This document shows positions 1,960 to 28,813 of a stretch of 64,000 nt of DNA, piece by piece. The notes under the pieces were generated by a model. It had not been told where the DNA came from. It saw nothing but the letters and a program-made list of their open reading frames with translations, and ran no database searches. The translations under genes and the position numbers were made by a program. The stretch lies in the NCBI GenBank assembly GCA_030700025.1, contig JAUYKI010000017.1, positions 2,748-66,747 on the forward strand. The letters are read 5' to 3'. Positions within the stretch are counted from its first letter, which is position 1; every line of letters starts with the position of its first letter. Origin of the DNA: a bacterium. Lineage in GTDB: Bacteria; Patescibacteriota; Minisyncoccia; UBA6257; 02-FULL-45-10c.

Positions 1960-3340
1960 GGATAAGGTGATTAGCTTGTGCAAGCGGCGGGGTTTTATTT
2001 TTCCCGGATCGGAAATTTACGGGGGATTGGCAAATTCCTGGGATTACGGCCCATTAGGGGTGGAATTGAAAAATAATATCAAGCAGGAATGGTGGAGGCG
2101 TTTTGTGCATTCCCGGACGGATGTGGTGGGTTTGGATACGGCTTTAATTATGAACACCAAAGTTTGGGAAGCGAGCGGACATTTGAAGGAATTTTCTGAC
2201 CCGTTGGTGGAGTGCGATGTGTGTAAAAATCGGTGGCGTATTGATGCATTGGATCAAATGAGGGCTCGTAAAGCAGATGGCTCATATAGATGTCCAACAA
2301 TGACGGCCTCTTTTATTAAGGGGGGTGCCGATAGTTATTGCTCGGGCAAATTAAGTGAACCACGCCAGTTTAATTTAATGTTCAAAACTTTTTTAGGCCC
2401 AGTGGAAAGCGAAGACAATACAGTTTATTTCCGTCCGGAAACCGCGCAGGGAATGTTCGTAAATTTTAAAAACGTTTTAGAAACTACCCGCAAGCGTTTG
2501 CCGTTCGGCATTGCCCAGGTCGGCAAAGCATTCCGGAATGAAATTACTCCGGGCAATTTTATTTTCCGCACCCGCGAGTTTGAACAAATGGAAATAGAGT
2601 ATTTTACTCACGAAAAAGATTGGAAAGCTCATTTTGAAATGTGGCTGGAAGAAATGAGAAATTGGCTCCGGCATTTGGGGGTGAAGAAATTCCACGAAAC
2701 GGAAATTCCGGACGGCGAACGCGCCCACTATTCCAAGCGGACCGTGGATATTGAATATGACTTTCCGTTCGGCAAAAAGGAGCTTTATGGCCTGGCCTAT
2801 CGGACAGATTTTGATTTAAAAAAACACATGGATAAAAGCGGGGAGGATTTCCGGTATACCGATCCGGAAACTAATGAGAAGTTTTTACCGCATGTTATTG
2901 AGCCGACTTGGGGCGTTGACCGCTCGGTATTGGTTGCATTGCTGGAGGCTTACCATGAAGAAACGGTTAAAAGTGAAAAGTTAAAAGTGAAAAGTGAGGA
3001 CGATGAAGATACGCGGGTAGTTATGAAATTTCCAAAATGGCTGGCGCCGGTTAAGGTGGCAGTTCTGCCTCTTTCCAAGAAAGAAAATCTTTCCAGCCAA
3101 GCTAAAAAAATTCATGAAGATTTGGCAAAAGATTTTGTCTGTGAATATGACGAAACCCAAAGTATCGGCAAGCGCTATCGCCGGCAGGACGAAATTGGAA
3201 CGCCGTTTTGCGTAACAGTTGATTTTGAATCGCTGGAGGATAAAGCGGTAACGGTGAGAGATCGTGATACAATGAAACAAGAGAGAATTTCTATTTCTGA
3301 ATTAAAGAACTATCTAAATCAGAAATTAAATTCCGAATAA
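1958..3340 (+). CDS. glyQS: Glycine--tRNA ligase (class II, alpha2 type)
   Basis: MDKVISLCKRRGFIFPGSEIYGGLANSWDYGPLG is a typical GlyRS N-terminus. The ORF is open from TTG at 1892, but ATG 1958 matches family N-termini. It sits at the end of the repeat arm. Confidence 0.9.
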   Translation: MDKVISLCKRRGFIFPGSEIYGGLANSWDYGPLGVELKNNIKQEWWRRFVHSRTDVVGLDTALIMNTKVWEASGHLKEFSDPLVECDVCKNRWRIDALDQMRARKADGSYRCPTMTASFIKGGADSYCSGKLSEPRQFNLMFKTFLGPVESEDNTVYFRPETAQGMFVNFKNVLETTRKRLPFGIAQVGKAFRNEITPGNFIFRTREFEQMEIEYFTHEKDWKAHFEMWLEEMRNWLRHLGVKKFHETEIPDGERAHYSKRTVDIEYDFPFGKKELYGLAYRTDFDLKKHMDKSGEDFRYTDPETNEKFLPHVIEPTWGVDRSVLVALLEAYHEETVKSEKLKVKSEDDEDTRVVMKFPKWLAPVKVAVLPLSKKENLSSQAKKIHEDLAKDFVCEYDETQSIGKRYRRQDEIGTPFCVTVDFESLEDKAVTVRDRDTMKQERISISELKNYLNQKLNSE

Positions 3341-3399: not shown

Positions 3400-4668
3400 A
3401 TGTTTAAAAAGTATGTTTTATCCAGCGGTTTAAGAGTGGTGTTGGCTCCCCAGCCGGACAATGTGGCGGCCACGGTTTTGGTATTGGTAGAGGCGGGATC
3501 AAAATACGAAACCAAAAAAATTAACGGCTTATCTCATTTTTTGGAACATTTATGTTTTAAGGGAACGGCTAAGCGGCCGACGGCGATTGCCATTGCTTCA
3601 GAATTGGAATCTTTGGGAGCGGTTTACAATGCTTTTACCGGGCACGAAGTAACCGGTTATTACGCCAAAGTCGGCGCGTCTAAAATTAATTCGGCTTTGG
3701 ATATTATCGCCGATCTTTATCAGGACCCGGTTTTTGACGAAGCGGAATTTGAAAAAGAAAAAGGAGTTATTATTGAAGAAATTAATTTATACGAAGATAC
3801 GCCGACCCGGAAAGTCCAGGAACTTTTTACGGAATTGATGTACGGCGATCAGCCGGCCGGCTGGCCCATCGGCGGTTTGAAGGAAGTAATTTTGTCGTTA
3901 AAAAAACAGGATGTTTTGAATTACCGCTCGGAGCACTACGTGGCTAAGGCTACGACCGTAGTGGTTGCTGGCGCTTTTAATGAAAAAGAAATGCTGAAAA
4001 GAATAAAAACGCTTTTTGCTAAAACTCCGGCTAACAAAAAATTCTCTAAAATCCGCACTCAAGAATCCCAGGCCCGGCCTCAAACTTTAGTGCGCTTTAA
4101 AAAATCAGACCAAACTCATTTGGTAATGGGCTTCCGGGCATTTGACCGGTACGATAAACGGCAGTACGCGCTGGAAGTTTTAGCGGATATTTTGGGCGGC
4201 GGCATGAGCTCCCGGCTTTTTCAAAGAATCAGGGCAGAATTAGGCGCGGCTTATTACGTTAAAGCCGGAACCGATTTATTTACGGATCATGGATTTTTGT
4301 CCGTATCGGCCGGAGTGGACCACCGGAAATTAAAAGAAGTTATTGAGGCAGCTTTGGGGGAGTTTAAGAAAATTTCTTCGGTTTTGGTAACTTCCAATGA
4401 GCTAGAAAAATCTAAGAATCATTTGACCGGCCAGGCGATGCTGGGTTTGGAAACCTCGGACGCCTTAGCCAGTTTTTACGGAGAACAGGAGATTTTCCAG
4501 GAAAAGATATTGAACCTTCGGGACGTTATTAAAAAAATAGAGGCCGTGACCGCTAAAGACGTTTTAAACGTTGCCCGTGAAATTATGAAGGATAAAAAGT
4601 TGAATTTGGCGCTTATCGGACCGGTCAAGAAGCTTCCGACCGGGCTGGATTTTAGTTTGGGGCGGTAG
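3400..4668 (+). CDS. M16 family zinc peptidase (pitrilysin-like)
   Basis: HFLEHLCFKGT carries the inverted zinc motif HxxEH. The 422-aa two-domain length is typical. Confidence 0.85.
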   Translation: MFKKYVLSSGLRVVLAPQPDNVAATVLVLVEAGSKYETKKINGLSHFLEHLCFKGTAKRPTAIAIASELESLGAVYNAFTGHEVTGYYAKVGASKINSALDIIADLYQDPVFDEAEFEKEKGVIIEEINLYEDTPTRKVQELFTELMYGDQPAGWPIGGLKEVILSLKKQDVLNYRSEHYVAKATTVVVAGAFNEKEMLKRIKTLFAKTPANKKFSKIRTQESQARPQTLVRFKKSDQTHLVMGFRAFDRYDKRQYALEVLADILGGGMSSRLFQRIRAELGAAYYVKAGTDLFTDHGFLSVSAGVDHRKLKEVIEAALGEFKKISSVLVTSNELEKSKNHLTGQAMLGLETSDALASFYGEQEIFQEKILNLRDVIKKIEAVTAKDVLNVAREIMKDKKLNLALIGPVKKLPTGLDFSLGR

Positions 4669-4716: not shown

Positions 4717-5745
4717 ATGGAAAAAGGAACTTTATTTGAGATTAGCTGGAGCAGCCTGTGGCGCATAGTGGTAATGCTGGTTTTGGGCAGCATTGTTTTT
4801 TTTGCTAAAGACGTTTTGGTGGCGGTGGCTTTGGCGATAGTCATTTCCTCGGCCTTTGATCCGCTGGTGAGCGCTTTGGAGCGCTGGCGGATTCCCCGGG
4901 TTTTGGGCACTCTTGGCATTTTTATTTTGATTATTGTCGGTTTAGCAATGGTGCTTTACACTATTGTTCCTTTGGCGCTTTCGGAGTTAAACGTTTTGTT
5001 GAATACTTTAACCGAAATTGACGCTCCGTTTTTGGGATTGGAACAATTATCCGCGGTAGTTAAAACCCTTAACGAGGGAATCGGCCGGCTGGCGAATCTT
5101 TTAATCAGCGGCAGCGCTTCTATATTAGATGCCGTATCTCGGTTTTTGGGCGGAATTGCTTTAGTAATCTCGGTTTTTATCCTTTCCTTCTATTTAACTA
5201 TTGACCGGGACGGCATAGAGAACTTCTTAAAGGCAATTTTGCCGCCTAGTTACGAAGATCAGGTTTTAGATATTTATTTCCGGGTCCGGAGGAAGATTGG
5301 CCGCTGGCTGCAGGGCCAGATTTTCTTGAGCTTGAGCATCGGTTTTAGCACCTTTATAGCCCTTTGGAGTTTGGGAATTAAATACAGCCTGATCCTGGGA
5401 ATCTTGGCTGGTATGTTAGAAATTGTTCCGTTTGTGGGCCCGATTTTCAGCGGCGCCATAGCTTTCTTGATTGCCCTTTCGCAGTCATTCTCGTCGGCAA
5501 TTTACGTTCTGATACTTTTTATCGTGATTCAGCAATTAGAAGGGCATTTATTGGTACCGACTTTTATGCGTTTGGCCACCGGCTTGAATCCGGCTTTAAT
5601 TCTGATCGCCCTTTTAATCGGAAGCCAGCTTTTGGGATTTATCGGATTGATTTTGGCGGTTCCAGCCGCGGTGCTGGCGCAAGAAGTTATTAATTTCTGG
5701 TCTTTGTCTAAAAACAAAAAGAAGGCAGCGATGCTAAACGTTTAG
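4717..5745 (+). CDS. AI-2E family transporter (PerM/UPF0118)
   Basis: 342 aa and polytopic, with a ...EIVPFVGPI...QQLEGHLLVP... pattern typical of the family. Confidence 0.8.
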   Translation: MEKGTLFEISWSSLWRIVVMLVLGSIVFFAKDVLVAVALAIVISSAFDPLVSALERWRIPRVLGTLGIFILIIVGLAMVLYTIVPLALSELNVLLNTLTEIDAPFLGLEQLSAVVKTLNEGIGRLANLLISGSASILDAVSRFLGGIALVISVFILSFYLTIDRDGIENFLKAILPPSYEDQVLDIYFRVRRKIGRWLQGQIFLSLSIGFSTFIALWSLGIKYSLILGILAGMLEIVPFVGPIFSGAIAFLIALSQSFSSAIYVLILFIVIQQLEGHLLVPTFMRLATGLNPALILIALLIGSQLLGFIGLILAVPAAVLAQEVINFWSLSKNKKKAAMLNV

Positions 5746-6093: not shown

Positions 6094-7722
6094 ATGTCTA
6101 AGTTCTATATCACTACCTCTATTGCTTATGTTAATGCCGCCCCGCATATTGGTTTTGCGCTGGAAGCGGTTCAGGCGGACGTAGTTGCCCGCTGGCATAA
6201 GCAGGAGGAAGTCTTCTTTTTAACCGGCACAGACGAGCACGGAGCGAAAATTGCCAGGGCCGCGGCCGCCTCGCGCGGCGAGGCGCCGCCGAAAGCGAGC
6301 CTCGCCACTGGCGGGAGCCTCGCCCCAAAGGGGCGGGAAGCCGACAATAAGTTAATAAAAGAATTTGTTGATCAGCAAGCAGAAAAGTTTAAAGCGTTAA
6401 AAAGCGCGCTTAATTTATCCTGGGACAACTTCATCCGGACTTCCGACCAAAAAGTTCATTGGCCGGTGGCGCAAGAAGTCTGGAAGCGGATTGCGGAGGC
6501 GGGCGATTTATATAAAAAAACTTATCAGGGGCTTTATTGCGTCGGCCACGAAGCGTTTGTTACCCAGAAAGACTTAGTGGCGGAAACCCCGACGCTAGAG
6601 GGTCGGGGCTCCGACCGAAGCGCCGGAGATGCCTTAGTATGTAAAGATCATAAAAAAGCCCCGGAGCTTATAGAAGAAGAAAACTGGTTTTTTAAATTAT
6701 CAAAATATACGAAAGATATTGAATTGCGAATAAAGAATGATGAATTACGGATTATTCCGGAAGGCCGGAAAAATGAGGTTTTGGGCTTGCTTAAGGACGA
6801 TCCGGAAGATGGTTCGGCAAGCTCACCACAAGACGTGAGTTTCTCCCGGCCGAGCAAAGACTTAACCTGGGGCGTTCCGGTGCCGGGCGATGATTCGCAA
6901 ACCATGTATGTCTGGGCAGATGCCCTCACGAACTATATTAGCGGTTATGGCGGAGTTAAAAACTGGGAAAAGCATCCGGCGGATATCCATTTTATCGGTA
7001 AAGATATTTTACGTTTTCACGCGATCATTTGGCCGGCGATGCTTTTATCGGCAAAATTGCCCTTGCCGAAAACTATTTTTGTGCACGGCCATATTTTGTC
7101 TGACGGGCAGAAGATGTCTAAATCCTTAGGCAATGTGGTGGATCCGTTTGAATTAGTAAAAAAGTATGGTTCGGCAAGCTCATCACAAGCTGGCACAGAT
7201 GCAGTTCGGTATTTTCTTTTGCGGGAAATTCCGTCGGCGGAAGACGGCGATTTTAGCTATGAAAAATTTACCCAGCGGTATAACGCGGATTTGGCAAACG
7301 GATTAGGTAATTTTGCGGCCCGGGTTTTAACCCTTGCGAGTAATTACAGCGAATATTTTACAATTCACGCTAACCCCCAGAACGTTCACGAGGTGGTTAA
7401 TGACAAAATTAAGGAAACCCAATTATTAGCTAATAAGAAAATCACGGATTTTAAACTTAACGAAGCACTAGAAATAATTTGGAGCTTAATCCATTTTGGG
7501 GATCAGTATATAAATGAAAAAAAACCATGGGAGCGAAAGGATGAAAAAATAATAGAGGCAAATGGCGTAGCGATTCACAGTTCGGTAGCAATTTTAAATA
7601 ACGTGGCGATTTTACTCCAACCATTTTTGCCGGACACCGCGGATAAAATTACCAAGAGCATCGTTTGGGAAGAAGGTAGGCTGGAAATCCAAAAGACCGA
7701 AAATTTATTTCCGAGATTGTAA
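6094..7722 (+). CDS. metG: Methionine--tRNA ligase
   Basis: N-terminus YITTSIAYVNAAPHIGF, a KMSKS motif (KMSKSLGN) and WADALTNY. Carries several in-frame repeat-derived insertions (see findings). Confidence 0.9.
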   Translation: MSKFYITTSIAYVNAAPHIGFALEAVQADVVARWHKQEEVFFLTGTDEHGAKIARAAAASRGEAPPKASLATGGSLAPKGREADNKLIKEFVDQQAEKFKALKSALNLSWDNFIRTSDQKVHWPVAQEVWKRIAEAGDLYKKTYQGLYCVGHEAFVTQKDLVAETPTLEGRGSDRSAGDALVCKDHKKAPELIEEENWFFKLSKYTKDIELRIKNDELRIIPEGRKNEVLGLLKDDPEDGSASSPQDVSFSRPSKDLTWGVPVPGDDSQTMYVWADALTNYISGYGGVKNWEKHPADIHFIGKDILRFHAIIWPAMLLSAKLPLPKTIFVHGHILSDGQKMSKSLGNVVDPFELVKKYGSASSSQAGTDAVRYFLLREIPSAEDGDFSYEKFTQRYNADLANGLGNFAARVLTLASNYSEYFTIHANPQNVHEVVNDKIKETQLLANKKITDFKLNEALEIIWSLIHFGDQYINEKKPWERKDEKIIEANGVAIHSSVAILNNVAILLQPFLPDTADKITKSIVWEEGRLEIQKTENLFPRL

Positions 7723-7736
7723 TAACCCCGGTACTA

Positions 7737-8410
7737 AAAAGAAAAATCCCCCGACATGCGTCAGGGGAAATGATGATGGGCAACAGTTGCTTTGCAGTGT
7801 TATGAGGTATTAGCCTCTAGCCATAAAGTGGCTGTCTGTTCTGCGTTGCTTCTGTTGCCGTTGACTCGGAATTTTGTCAGGGCGGGTGGACACCGGGTTA
7901 GCTCGCGCGGCTGAAAGAAAGTCAGCCTTCTATTCCCGGCGCCACCTTTGGCAGTGAGATGGTTGTAACACCCCACCGGCCAGCAGCCTGCCCCGACTTT
8001 ACGTCGGGGTCCCCTCCGGCTTGTGACCGGAGGATGATTCCAAATAGCAGTTGCCTTTCGCAGATTATGAGCCTATTGGGCTCTGACCAAAAAAGTGGTC
8101 TTCTTTCTGTTAGCTTCTGTTATTGGATGATTCCGCCCCGACGCTTTGTAAGCCGTCGGGGATACTGCTACTTGGTGAGCCGGTCCTAAGGTAGCGAATC
8201 TTTGGTTTCCTACCCACCAAGATGATGCTTCTTATTGTAGTTAAGGAACGAAAGTAGCGCGATGTGACTCTGCAACTGTCCAGTTTGTGTTGCATCGGAG
8301 CGGAATACCCGGGTGGACGGCCCCAAGGCTCCTACGGCTCTTTGCCTGATCTCGGGTTCTTCCCGACGTCAACCAAGCATTGTAAGAACCAAAGCCAGCA
8401 TCGCTAAGTA
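7737..8410 (-). ncRNA. Candidate large structured RNA (unclassified); boundaries approximate
   Basis: ORF-poor 880-bp gap with many perfect helices. Two helices carry G-U pairs only when read on the minus strand. A minus-strand terminator sits at 7748-7767 with a T-run, and a TTGACA-N17-TATCCT match at 8439-8411 (-). Confidence 0.45.
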
Positions 8411-8603
8411 AGGATAGCACACCTCAAACCCTTTGTCAATAGCGGGTTTGCAATCTCTAAATTCTAATCCCTAATCTCTAAATAAACTCGAAGCTCAAAT
8501 ATCCGGATTTTTAAATTTTATTTTTGAGATTGGACATTGGAAATTGTTTAGAAATTAGGGTTTAGGAATTAGAAATTTATCAAAACATGTTATTATTAAT
8601 TCC

Positions 8604-9473
8604 ATGAAACTTTTTGATTCTCACACCCACGTTCAATTCTCGGCTTACGATAATGACCGCGAAGAAGTTATTAAACGCGCTCGAGAAGCGGGCGTAAAAA
8701 TGATTTGCGTGGGTACGCAGTTTTCCACTTCCGAGGCGGGGATAAAATTGGCGGAAAAATATCCGGACGATATTTGGGCGTCGGTTGGTTTTCATCCGAA
8801 TCACGCGGTGAGCGAGGGCTGGCATCACGATCCGGACGAACAAAGCGAAGCTCGGCCGGAAAAGTTTGATTCGGACCAATTGGAAAAATTAGCCCTGAAT
8901 CCGAAAGTGGTGGCGATTGGGGAATGCGGATTGGACTACTATAGAATCAGGAATGATGAATTAGGAATTAAGAATAAGCAGAAAGAAGTTTTTTTGGCGC
9001 AAGCGGAGATTGCCCAAAAATTAAATAAAGCCCTTATGATTCATTGCCGTTCCTCGGTTTTGAAAAGCCCCGAAGGTAAATCAATAAAAACTGACGATGC
9101 TTATGAAGACCTATTTAACTTAATGACCAATAACCAATTACCAATAACCAAAGTAATTCACTTTTTTGCCGGGTCTTTAGAAATAGCAAAAAAATTATTA
9201 AATGCCGGCTGTTATTTTACTTTTGGCGGGGTCATAACGTTTACCCGGGATTATGACGAGGCAATTAAATATCTTCCTTTGGACAGAATCCTTTTGGAAA
9301 CCGACGCGCCCTATGTCGCGCCGGAGCCGTACCGGGGGAAGAGGAATGAGCCGGCTTATGTTGTGGAAGTAGCGAAAAAAATGGCGGAGTTCAAAGGCGT
9401 AAGTTTGGAGAAGGTGGCGGAAGCGACCACGCAAAATAACTTGACTATTTTTAGATTATCTGATATTGTATAG
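8604..9473 (+). CDS. tatD: TatD family metal-dependent hydrolase
   Basis: Motifs FDSHTHV, GECGLDY, IHCR and ETDAPY. Confidence 0.85.
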   Translation: MKLFDSHTHVQFSAYDNDREEVIKRAREAGVKMICVGTQFSTSEAGIKLAEKYPDDIWASVGFHPNHAVSEGWHHDPDEQSEARPEKFDSDQLEKLALNPKVVAIGECGLDYYRIRNDELGIKNKQKEVFLAQAEIAQKLNKALMIHCRSSVLKSPEGKSIKTDDAYEDLFNLMTNNQLPITKVIHFFAGSLEIAKKLLNAGCYFTFGGVITFTRDYDEAIKYLPLDRILLETDAPYVAPEPYRGKRNEPAYVVEVAKKMAEFKGVSLEKVAEATTQNNLTIFRLSDIV

Positions 9474-11694: not shown

Positions 11695-11715
11695 AGACTA
11701 AAAATCAAAAAATTT

Positions 11716-11740
11716 AACCCCGATAAATGTCGGGGTTTTT
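11716..11740 (+). terminator. Intrinsic terminator
   Basis: CCCCGA-taaatg-TCGGGG followed by TTTTT. Confidence 0.6.
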
Positions 11741-11745
11741 AATTT

Positions 11746-11891
11746 AGAAAGAGTGTTTTATTCTCCCGCTACTGTTCAAACTCCCGGCGAGAGTTTTCAC
11801 TGGGTCTCGGGCTTCGCTCTTTCCGCCTTTGGCGGAAAACCCTGCCCGCTCAGCCCTCAGCCCGCGCTACGGAGAATAAAACACTCTTTCT
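11746..11891 (+). repeat. GC-rich inverted-repeat-bounded element, copy E1
   Basis: AGAAAGAGTGTTTTATTCTCC and GGAGAATAAAACACTCTTTCT form perfect 21-nt arms. The interior is homologous to the reverse complement of 36623-36810. Confidence 0.7.
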
Positions 11892-11904
11892 AATTTTTAT
11901 GGAA

Positions 11905-11934
11905 ATAAAAAAACCACGGCTTAACGCACCGTGG
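11905..11934 (-). terminator. Intrinsic terminator (minus strand)
   Basis: CCACGG/CCGTGG hairpin followed on the minus strand by a T-run. Confidence 0.55.
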
Positions 11935-11996
11935 TATTGATTAGCGCCCTTGCTAATGCCCGCAAGAGTAAAGGGTTATGCCGAAACGGGCCCTGA

Positions 11997-12116
11997 TCAG
12001 GAATAGTGGCAGGTCAGGTTCAGGGCCATTACCAGAAGGATCATCGCGCCCGCCACGCCCACTATCACCCAGGCGACCTCCTGGCTCACCTTCTTCTCGT
12101 TCAGATACTTCATCAT
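11997..12116 (-). CDS. Small hydrophobic protein (39 aa, one TM)
   Basis: ATG preceded by AAGGAGG at a 6-nt spacing. Sequence MMKYLNEKKVSQEVAWVIVGVAGAMILLVMALNLTCHYS. GC-rich codons unlike the neighbouring genes. Below the ORF-track length cutoff. Confidence 0.5.
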   Translation of the reverse strand: MMKYLNEKKVSQEVAWVIVGVAGAMILLVMALNLTCHYS

Positions 12117-12135
12117 GTGCAGCCTCCTTGTTAGT

Positions 12136-12333
12136 TTACTTTGGGCCCGAGATGGGGTTCTGTCGTTTCTTGAGCCCGCCTAACAAAAGACCAATCAGAA
12201 GGCCGATCAGGTATCCGATGTACAAACTGCAGCCTATGGTCACGAACGATGCGTGAGGGGTTCGCGGAGTCTCGAAGGCGTAGGGCAAAAACATGGCAAC
12301 TATCAACCCGATACCAAGCTGAATCATATACAC
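12136..12333 (-). CDS. Small membrane protein (65 aa, two TM)
   Basis: GTG/ATG start preceded by GGGAGGA. Hydrophobic, and co-oriented with the 39-aa ORF. Confidence 0.5.
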   Translation of the reverse strand: MYMIQLGIGLIVAMFLPYAFETPRTPHASFVTIGCSLYIGYLIGLLIGLLLGGLKKRQNPISGPK

Positions 12334-12368
12334 GATAGTCCTCCCAGCGTTTTCAAGTTTCTAAACAT

Positions 12369-12397
12369 ATCTTATCATATTATTCCAATCTTGTCAA
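12369..12397 (-). promoter_or_regulatory. Sigma70-like promoter for the small membrane ORF pair
   Basis: TTGACA-N17-TAAGAT on the minus strand. Confidence 0.45.
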
Positions 12398-12440
12398 TCG
12401 GGGATAGCAAATACCCCATTTTTAGCTTAAAATTTACCTA

Positions 12441-27473: not shown

Positions 27474-27766
27474 GTTTTTCTTTATCCACAAGGCTTACTT
27501 TACAATGTTTGGCGGTAATTTGCTATAATAGTTTCTAGTTGTGTCGCGTCCATAAAAGGGTTTTTGTTGTTTCTTAGAACCCGGTTGTGAGGACTGGATT
27601 TTGAGAAAGGCAGGTTTGTTTCAAAAAATAAGAATCGAGTGGCGGGTCGAATATTATTTATATAATTTAATTCACCGCGCCCAAGCATTCTTTTTCAAAA
27701 ACAAAACGGAAAGTCTTATGAGCCCTCCGCGGAGTCATAAGACTTGCCAGCCCTTTTATGGGCGTA

Positions 27767-28041
27767 GGGGTCTGTCATAAAATTACTGGCTTAATTTGGA
27801 GGCCTGGATTTGAGACAGGTACGAGACGCGACGACGACAACGTGTCTGAATGAAGGACACGTTGAGGAGGAGTAACGAAGTAGCTGGCCAAAGATAGGCC
27901 TCCCCGAAGGGCCAAAGCATTTTATGGGCTGCGACTGCGTCACTCGTCGTCAATGTAGCTAAAGCTACAATCTCCTCCTCGTTTCTTGTCTCGCTCCAAA
28001 AATGCTATGGTAAATAAGTCATTAATTTTATGACAGACCCC
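27767..28041 (+). ncRNA. Candidate structured element, ~280-nt family, copy 3
   Basis: P1 pairs 27767-27785 with 28023-28041 (19/19, sequence unrelated to copies 1 and 2). P2 pairs 27798-27805 with 27896-27903. P3 pairs 27916-27923 with 27999-28006. Hairpins at 27839-27863 and 27954-27969. Core TGAGGAGGAGTAACGAAG at 27863-27880. Confidence 0.5.
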
Positions 28042-28151
28042 AGTATGGTATAGTTTAAGTAAGCATTATAAACAAGAACCTATTGAAATGGGTTCGGGCA
28101 ATCGATTTGATAAGGTCGCGATTAGCTCAATTCTAATTTTTCAAAAAAACT

Positions 28152-28400
28152 ATGGCAAATTCTGCATTTATGAAGCCGTTGAAAGTTAGCTCGGACTTAG
28201 CCGCGGTAGTCGGCAATGGCCCAATGCCTCGGAGCGAAGTTGTAAAGAAGCTCTGGGTATACATCAAAAAGAACAACCTTCAAGATCCTACAAATAAGCG
28301 CAACATCAACGCCGACGCGAACTTGAAAAAAGTTTTTGGCGGAAAGTCAGTTGTGAACATGTTTGAAATGACCAAATTGGTTTCCAAGCATCTTTCTTAA
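28152..28400 (+). CDS. SWIB/MDM2 domain protein
   Basis: 82 aa. ...PRSEVVKKLWVYIKKNNLQDP..KRNI..D..L..VFG... matches the SWIB pattern. Confidence 0.8.
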   Translation: MANSAFMKPLKVSSDLAAVVGNGPMPRSEVVKKLWVYIKKNNLQDPTNKRNINADANLKKVFGGKSVVNMFEMTKLVSKHLS

Positions 28401-28514
28401 TTGATTAAGAAATAAAAAATCCGGTCGCCTTAGGCGGCGGGATTTTTTATTTGGGGCATGATATAATGCAGTTAAAGCCCAAAGGTCTGACAATTAAATT
28501 AAGAATTTAATTTC

Positions 28515-28673
28515 ATGGAAGGATATTGTGTAAAGTGCAAAGCGAAAAGAGAAATGAAAGACGCCAAAGAGGTTGAAATGAAAGGAAAGGGCGGCAAGCC
28601 CAGGATGGCAATGACCGGCGTTTGCCCAGTTTGCGGCACTAAAATGTTTCGCATCATGGGCGCCAAGAAATAA
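28515..28673 (+). CDS. Small zinc-ribbon protein (DUF5679-like)
   Basis: 52 aa, MEGYCVKCKAKREM...GVCPVCGTKMFRIMG, with two CxxC pairs and a terminator downstream. The antisense 73-aa track ORF is rejected. Confidence 0.7.
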   Translation: MEGYCVKCKAKREMKDAKEVEMKGKGGKPRMAMTGVCPVCGTKMFRIMGAKK

Positions 28674-28705
28674 TTTATCTTCTCCAGCTTGGTAAGATAT
28701 CTAAC

Positions 28706-28735
28706 AAAAAATCTGGTCAAAAGCCGGATTTTTTG
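28706..28735 (+). terminator. Intrinsic terminator
   Basis: ATCTGG/CCGGAT stem followed by TTTTTT. Confidence 0.55.
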
Positions 28736-28813
28736 TTAGATTCTAGATTAGAGTAGGGCTAAATCTCACGAAGCGAGATCGCCCGAACATTTTATTGAAA
28801 TAAAATGTTTTAG

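Follow-up and report, generated by a model that had tools for sequence, protein, structure and literature searches.

Regulatory RNAs of bacteria pair with messenger RNAs (mRNAs), and in base-pairing small RNAs derived from 3' untranslated regions, such as CpxQ or SroC, the seed stands next to the intrinsic terminator. Guide RNAs that pair with ribosomal RNA (rRNA) are, to our knowledge, known only from archaea and eukaryotes. Short complementarity to rRNA can also hold a ribosomal subunit on an mRNA, as in Shine-Dalgarno pairing and in the calicivirus termination upstream ribosome-binding site (TURBS) motif, which pairs with 18S rRNA; all viral rRNA tethers that we know of pair with small-subunit rRNA. 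Here we describe an element in a 64-kb stretch of DNA (64,000 nucleotides (nt), the window) from a bacterium of the candidate phyla radiation (CPR), a member of the Parcubacteria near Harrisonbacteria, that would act as a base-pairing RNA with large-subunit rRNA as its complement. It consists of an 18-nt string identical to 23S rRNA, which a non-coding RNA of about 665 nt, encoded on the opposite strand, is predicted to display as antisense in a hairpin loop. From its sequence we infer both that rRNA is the partner and what the effect of pairing would be. In the literature searched, an RNA with a complement to large-subunit rRNA is undescribed for bacteria or phages; queries with the sequence itself or on natural antisense RNAs to rRNA retrieved only I-CeuI sites, primers and synthetic antisense work.

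On the plus strand, CGGTCCTAAGGTAGCGAA (8181-8198) is identical at all 18 bases to positions 1920-1937 of 23S rRNA from Escherichia coli K-12 (rrlH, rrnH operon), as an earlier note on this DNA had stated. The string occurs once in the window, even with up to three mismatches tolerated. In 23S rRNA these positions make up the 3' strand of helix 69 (H69) and the strand that leads into helix 70 (H70), in domain IV at the subunit interface, and they span position 1931, where group I introns are commonly inserted in CPR. Identity to rRNA ends at 1920 and at 1937, with diverging flanks on both sides. When the whole window was compared with E. coli 16S, 23S and 5S rRNA on both strands, 25 exact matches of at least 12 nt were found, against about 35 expected by chance, and the second-longest match was 14 nt. 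Chance can be ruled out for the 18-mer because only 0.0085 matches of this length are expected per window, which agrees with the earlier judgement that the match is not random. An rRNA gene or fragment was also ruled out, since no large-subunit covariance model matched and identity does not extend into the flanks. Rfam families for rRNA were absent from the 64 kb at gathering score and from 7600-8700 at E<=10, so the earlier statement that no rRNA gene lies nearby holds too; the only Rfam matches over the window at gathering score were six transfer RNAs (tRNAs). The stretch is also present in a raw-read assembly (L001) and in an assembly produced independently in another study (L002, L003), where its flanks have diverged. 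The 18-mer is thus real, non-random and outside any rRNA gene. The one point that might favour coincidence or an artefactual origin, for instance an I-CeuI site carried over from a cloning vector, is that the earlier note had been looking for familiar sequences; given the low expectation, the diverged flanks of the independent assembly and the raw-read assembly, the probability of such an origin is negligible.

The 18-mer lies within an 881-nt gap free of open reading frames (ORFs; 7723-8603), which is flanked by metG (methionyl-tRNA synthetase, MetRS; 6094-7722) and tatD (TatD hydrolase; 8604-9473), both on the plus strand. On the strand that is antisense to the rRNA, sequence signals point to a separate transcription unit that has a promoter and a terminator of its own. 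A sigma-70-type promoter, TTGACA-17 nt-(TGc)TATCCT, is predicted at 8411-8439 (minus strand), and an intrinsic terminator at 7737-7768 (minus strand), with a 9-bp stem (7768-7747) followed by UUUUUCUUUU. These signals would delimit an RNA of about 665 nt (7737-8404, minus strand) that belongs to no Rfam family. Following synteny, we inspected the equivalent gap in the 11 closest MetRS relatives and found a homologous RNA only in L002/L003 (MetRS 72% identical) and L024 (66%); in the eight others the gap holds a gene of 192-216 amino acids, other genes or nothing. The promoter has the same layout in L002 (-10 element TATATT) and L024 (TATACT), with -35, -10, spacing and 5' end GCGAUGCUGG all conserved with the window. 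L002/L003 and L024 each have their own minus-strand terminator as well, a hairpin with a U-run whose sequence differs from that in the window. The 5' stem GCGAUGCUGG/CCAGUAUCGC of L024 includes a G.U pair, which the other strand would turn into a C.A mismatch. In the window, the minus strand folds to -292 kcal/mol (z -7.1) and the plus strand to -273 (z -4.6). Since the minus strand has both a promoter and an intrinsic terminator, and two related CPR genomes have them too, transcription from this strand, giving an RNA that carries the antisense of rRNA, is the best supported reading of the sequence. This is the orientation that the earlier note had proposed from wobble pairs, and the recurring signals, G.U pairs and fold energy all favour it.

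Read as minus-strand RNA, the 18-mer is 5'-UUCGCUACCUUAGGACCG-3', a perfect antisense to E. coli 23S 1920-1937, as the earlier note had anticipated for this strand. It is predicted to lie in a hairpin (8171-8221, minus strand) whose 10-bp closing stem pairs 8212-8221 with 8171-8180 and encloses a 31-nt loop (8181-8211), with the antisense forming the 3' 18 nt of the loop and abutting the stem. Two G.U pairs of the stem are possible only on the minus strand, and just seven of the closing pairs can form on the plus strand. Compared with the window, the stem in L002 has changed from CTTGGTG/CACCAAG to CTTGGCG/CGCCAAG; the differences comprise one compensatory change from U-A to C-G and one from U.G to C-G, and one G.U pair is kept in both. 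The loop of L002 retains GGTCCTAAGGTAGCGA, and the 16-mer UCGCUACCUUAGGACC (8182-8197, minus strand), a core that is also invariant in a phage described below, is the longest identical run in the alignment of the two RNAs. The antisense hairpin is followed by a GC-rich hairpin, CCCCGACG...CGUCGGGG (8136-8161, minus strand), which is present in L002 with two compensatory pairs. A conserved ORF was excluded by single-base indels between the window and L002.

We tentatively propose that the 18-mer encodes a functional single-stranded segment of the RNA, and that the loop base-pairs with 23S domain IV (H69/H70); as judged from the sequence, we would put this a little short of an even chance. In this proposal, the 16-18 nt at the 3' side of the loop would pair with 23S 1920-1937 in rRNA that is not locked in the 70S ribosome, that is, in nascent or unspliced pre-23S rRNA, in an assembly intermediate or in free 50S subunits. 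Pairing would tether the long RNA to large-subunit rRNA and could modulate the folding or maturation of domain IV, or the joining of subunits. In a genome with an intron at 1931, the contiguous complement would exist only in spliced rRNA. Such pairing is physically plausible, because a 13-mer peptide nucleic acid (PNA) directed against H69 strand-invades it, blocks translation and stops E. coli growth (Kulik et al. 2017, by the account in a review, PMC10777018), and because helix/loop 70 is accessible in free 50S subunits but not in 70S ribosomes, where MazF-mt6 cannot cut (PMC5408214). The PNA and the window's element have in common a short perfect complementarity to the H69 region. However, the PNA is man-made and targets the H69 hairpin itself, whereas the segment in the window covers only the 3' strand of H69, runs on to 1937, and would be a natural loop inside a 665-nt RNA. 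The target region is also one where CPR genes are often interrupted: insertions are found in 82% of CPR 23S genes, with hotspots of LAGLIDADG-bearing group I introns at 1917, 1931 and 1952 (PMC11270868), so that the description of CPR rRNA genes as intron-rich in the earlier note was apt.

We compared the element with the known systems that it most resembles. Box C/D and H/ACA RNAs of archaea and eukaryotes likewise carry 10-21 nt of complementarity to conserved rRNA, including H69-H71, and act on pre-rRNA. The window RNA, in contrast, is bacterial and has no D box (CUGA) after the antisense, which is followed by GCUCACCAAG in the minus-strand RNA; strings resembling RUGAUGA (AUGAUGA, GAUGAU) occur only on the opposite, plus strand, and a box C/D guide was therefore rejected. 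L7Ae, Nop5 and fibrillarin were not among the 48 window ORFs scanned, in a scan that included no search aimed at these proteins. An H/ACA guide was rejected because its complement would be bipartite and placed in an internal-loop pocket, with an ACA box 14-16 nt further on, whereas here it is one contiguous 18-nt block in a terminal loop. A group I intron guide was set aside as well: no group I model matched at E<=10 in 7600-8700, and the base opposite U1931 is A, giving a Watson-Crick pair rather than the G.U wobble expected at the 5' splice site in a group I P1 helix. Readings as a tRNA-like element, a ribozyme or a guide RNA of the IscB/TnpB kind lacked their defining features or a partner gene in the window. 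With several hundred nucleotides, extensive structure and a promoter and terminator of its own, the RNA resembles OLE, ROOL and GOLLD, but unlike these it has no Rfam match, is found in three related Parcubacteria only, and is modular with variable content. None of the covariance models for known large non-coding RNAs (OLE, ROOL, GOLLD, HEARO, RNase P, tmRNA, 6S and SRP) matched it. By the features found, the element falls outside every Rfam family and is neither an rRNA fragment nor a guide of the small nucleolar RNA-like or group I kind. It also differs from viral rRNA tethers, with which it shares a short rRNA complementarity, in that its complement is large-subunit rRNA at the subunit interface.

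The same string recurs in phages. Outside rRNA, the 16-mer core was found in 12 viral contigs; seven of these and one contig from the Joint Genome Institute (JGI) represent a single phage (L010-L015, L018, L022), in which AGCTGGTCCTAAGGTAGCGA(A/T)TCT has 23 of 24 nt in common with the window. A search of JGI metagenomes with the 24-mer returned only this phage. The intergenic region that holds its string is 312 nt long and separates a lipoprotein gene from the major head gene (PHROG 267, E 2e-61). The phage genes are on the strand opposite to rRNA sense, so an mRNA-sense RNA would carry the antisense, upstream of the major head gene. The coding strand also folds better (z -3.2 versus -1.4); in its fold, a 6-bp stem closes a 27-nt loop with the antisense in the 3' part, and a GC hairpin with a U-rich tail follows.

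In species genomes of GTDB, GGTCCTAAGGTAGCGAWTCT gave two matches, one of which lies inside a 402-amino-acid ORF and was taken as chance. The other is a metagenome-assembled genome of a deltaproteobacterium (L028), where an intergenic site (4130-4200) equals 23S 1908-1936 at 28 of 29 positions and is then followed by TTCT. This site is situated between a divergent signal-peptidase-like gene and another gene, with no rRNA gene within 8 kb.

To place these matches in a wider context, we analyzed viral contigs in scans that were seeded with rRNA strings; not all IMG/VR contigs are viral. The H69 17-mer CTATAACGGTCCTAAGG (23S 1914-1930) gave at least 120 matches and AAGGTAGCGAAATTCC (23S 1927-1942) gave 70. 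Of two control rRNA 17-mers of equal conservation, the sarcin-ricin loop gave none, and the 16S 515 region gave 20, mostly GC-rich coding matches and true rRNA. Only 2 of the 208 segments listed are real rRNA genes, the rest being 16-35 nt long. More than 100 viral contigs carry segments of 17-35 nt antisense to 23S 1911-1946 near terminators.

The first class of these elements consists of 17-18 nt of antisense to 23S 1914-1930/31, directly after which come a conserved hairpin rich in G.U pairs and a U tail. It comprises about 110 loci (at least 105) among the matches listed, in 50 distinct contexts (L030-L148). A hairpin with a U tail directly follows the segment in 41 of the 50 contexts when read in antisense orientation versus 3 of 50 in sense orientation, and for 49 of 50 the antisense reading also gives the more stable adjacent hairpin, by a mean of 12.7 kcal/mol. 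The hairpins contain 199 G.U pairs in antisense versus 18 in sense. Examples are found in L035 (3381-3469, plus strand) and L038 (~4300-4400, minus strand). In L035, where all genes are on one strand, an HNH endonuclease gene precedes the element, which begins 12 nt past its stop codon, and a RuvC-like gene comes after the element; this synteny is shared by about half of the contexts. With 17-18 nt of antisense, a G.U-rich hairpin and a U tail, these elements have exactly the build of the small RNAs with a terminator-adjacent seed. CpxQ and SroC, however, have mRNA partners, and the copy in the window is internal to a long RNA rather than placed by the terminator.

The position of half of these phage elements just downstream of an HNH endonuclease gene would also fit a role at the DNA level, in which the 18-mer is a partial, intron-less homing site of a LAGLIDADG endonuclease (at 23S 1931, or 1917/1923) that persists as a relic of ectopic homing or recombination, or as a decoy. 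The I-CeuI cloning-site sequence contains the 18-mer, which covers most of the I-CeuI site; around 1931, the 18 bp extend from -11 to +6, where a typical target has about 19-22 bp. CPR introns with LAGLIDADG genes are frequent at 1917, 1931 and 1952, and I-ShaI, encoded in an insertion at the frequent site 23IS7, cleaves its own insertion site in the form that lacks the intron (PMC11270868). We equate 23IS7 with 1931 from the order of the authors' list; the 18-mer spans this insertion point. Yet the site is incomplete on its 3' side, the window has no intron and no Rfam group I match, and no endonuclease, reverse transcriptase, integrase or transposase gene was found among its 48 ORFs. A relic should decay, whereas no run is better conserved between two genomes than the core, which lies in the loop of a co-varying stem; this conservation pattern is that of an RNA hairpin. 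The strong strand asymmetry of the hairpins next to the phage segments is a property of RNA as well. The homing relic raised in the earlier note thus found no support in these data, and we regard a DNA-level origin as improbable.

The second class reaches 1940 or beyond (L149-L217; some of its matches are due to chance) and contains co-linear complements to pieces of domain IV (~1913-1946, 1962-1978 and 1990-1999) in which helix 71 is skipped or replaced by another hairpin. These elements are often found in phage tRNA arrays, and 19 of 21 are opposite to rRNA sense, i.e., their antisense is co-oriented with the tRNA genes. Terminators (24 versus 6) and G.U pairs (94 versus 54) are again more numerous in antisense than in sense. 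Examples are L196 (5449-5670, minus strand), L175, L207 and L212. Several members have a T4-late-like TATAAATA upstream and a terminator downstream in antisense orientation. The small stable RNAs rnaC and rnaD of the T4 tRNA cluster were tried as relatives and rejected, as they do not contain the sequence. The phage elements had neither an Rfam match nor a match in cultured phages; when the CPR RNA and the phage elements were compared by BLAST with 50,697 cultured-phage records, no useful match was obtained. Likewise, Rfam searches of 24 related or viral loci placed no family over the element.

The rRNA stretches matched by the different elements (1914-1930, 1921-1937, 1908-1936 and 1919-1946) are different but overlapping. 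What recurs is therefore not a particular motif but complementarity to one part of 23S domain IV (helices 69-71), and this makes 23S rRNA the most economical partner for the loop in the window. It is possible, though we do not regard it as the expected outcome, that phages and some CPR bacteria encode an undescribed class of RNAs with 16-35 nt of perfect or near-perfect antisense to 23S helices 69-71 that bind large-subunit rRNA to control assembly, subunit joining or maturation and repair, with the hairpin in the window as a chromosomal CPR version. If so, large-subunit rRNA itself would be a target of trans-encoded RNAs in bacteria and phages. H69/H70 form the main intersubunit bridge, are accessible only outside 70S, are the target of toxins and are interrupted by introns in CPR. 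This would bear on how ribosomes are built in CPR bacteria, with their few assembly factors and intron-laden rRNA genes, and on how phages deal with host ribosomes.

Several observations weigh against pairing of the loop with rRNA, and some of them concern the strand. The plus strand may be transcribed as well, given that no clear terminator follows metG. In addition, a few phage elements that end at 1936 (L029, L033) are on the same strand as the neighbouring tRNA genes and would thus be sense. In L029 (~2400-2900, minus strand) and L033, the element lies in a phage tRNA array and carries 23S 1912-1936 in sense relative to the tRNAs, with TTGACA-17-TAATAA before it and domain-IV-like pieces (GCACGAAT...GGCGTAA) after it. 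This element, which may be a sense mimic unlike the other classes, has the pattern GCGA-TCTCTCG...ATAGCGAC in common with L028.

Mimicry of rRNA is a known regulatory principle, as in ribosomal-protein leaders and the 23S-methyl motif. By analogy, read-through from metG could produce a plus-strand decoy or binding site for a factor that recognizes H69/H70, such as a modification enzyme, a MazF-mt6-like ribotoxin or an assembly factor. The missing metG terminator, the adjacency or overlap of metG and tatD in relatives, and the longer, promoter-preceded elements in L029 and L033 would be in line with this. Nonetheless, the minus strand is favoured by its G.U pairs and fold energy and by the conservation of its promoter and terminator; in addition, the stretch ends before the UUCCU toxin site, and the phage elements are mostly antisense. 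The decoy suggested in the earlier note is disfavoured by the strand signals, although read-through from metG could transcribe the plus strand, and we consider a mimic quite improbable.

Other observations bear on the antisense reading itself. Because the rRNA site is universal, an antisense to it would also reach the ribosomes of the cell itself, which needs explaining. The antisense hairpin is carried by only two CPR genomes among the relatives examined, and in L024 its place is taken by another hairpin, which is perfectly paired and has no rRNA complement. The hairpin is an accessory module of the RNA, because the L024 homologue does without it. In single-sequence partition functions, the core is predicted to be unpaired with a probability of 0.41 in the window and 0.27 in L002, close to the whole-RNA means of 0.40 and 0.35, and its competing pairings are not the same in the two. 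A search with a covariance model built from the pair of CPR hairpins found the phage hairpin only at E ~1. Common descent of the CPR and phage hairpins is for this reason not established, and the string that they share may be convergent rather than homologous.

An accessory hairpin that is absent from L024, a core of unremarkable predicted accessibility, and conserved single-stranded motifs (AUCAUC, UAGCAGUA) on both sides of the hairpin could alternatively be accounted for by a captured copy of rDNA or rRNA that is now conserved since its loop binds a protein or another RNA, and not ribosomal rRNA. This would leave unexplained why unrelated phage RNA classes carry different, overlapping complements to one rRNA region, and why identity extends to 28 of 29 nt (1908-1936) in L028. 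We therefore place a captured copy on the unlikely side and retain pairing with 23S domain IV as our tentative reading of the loop.

The RNA has further parts outside the antisense hairpin. Its 5' domain (~8404-8230, minus strand) precedes the hairpin, and a junction module of about 85 nt is present in two copies (8040-8125 and 7779-7859, minus strand). The motif GGAAUCAUCC (GGATGATTCC on the plus strand) is found at 8125-8134 (minus strand) and, as a second copy, at 8032-8041, and is identical in L002; AUCAUC is further found at 8222-8227 and 7769-7777. The RNA also contains three similar CCCCGAC...GUCGGGG hairpins. Beside one of these, at 7979-7988, GCCAGCAGCC equals the core of the 16S 530 loop (517-526) in the same orientation as the 23S match, and would hence be antisense in the RNA; this 10-mer is at chance level and is not kept in L002. 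Other rRNA complements in the three CPR RNAs (window, L002 and L024) were 10-11-mers only, again at chance level. The ~665-nt RNA is a lineage-restricted, modular non-coding RNA. A pattern made of its promoter and 5' end had no matches in GTDB species genomes, and a MAFFT alignment of the 5' domains was misaligned and gave no usable consensus structure. In L002, a GC-rich, structured-looking stretch of about 215 nt (5173-5390) lies between the metG stop codon and the terminator of the long RNA; it has no counterpart in the window and no Rfam match at gathering score.

Between the promoter of the RNA and the start of tatD, an imperfect palindrome (8452-8577; 26% GC, 52-nt arms), unique in the window, may form a regulatory region shared by the divergent RNA and tatD. 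The sole Rfam matches at E<=10 in 7600-8700 are spurious microRNA models, of plant origin, on this AT-rich palindrome. Two other ORF-free stretches, at 11695-12440 (746 nt) and 27474-28813 (~1.3 kb, with tRNA genes on its flanks), had no Rfam match and no BLAST similarity to the ~665-nt RNA. Between tatD and leuS, the segment 9552-11694 holds a DUF5658 gene and a gene for an AMP-binding enzyme. In distant relatives (L006, L007, L239-L241), leuS directly follows tatD, which makes the stretch from metG to leuS a local hotspot for the turnover of genes and RNAs.

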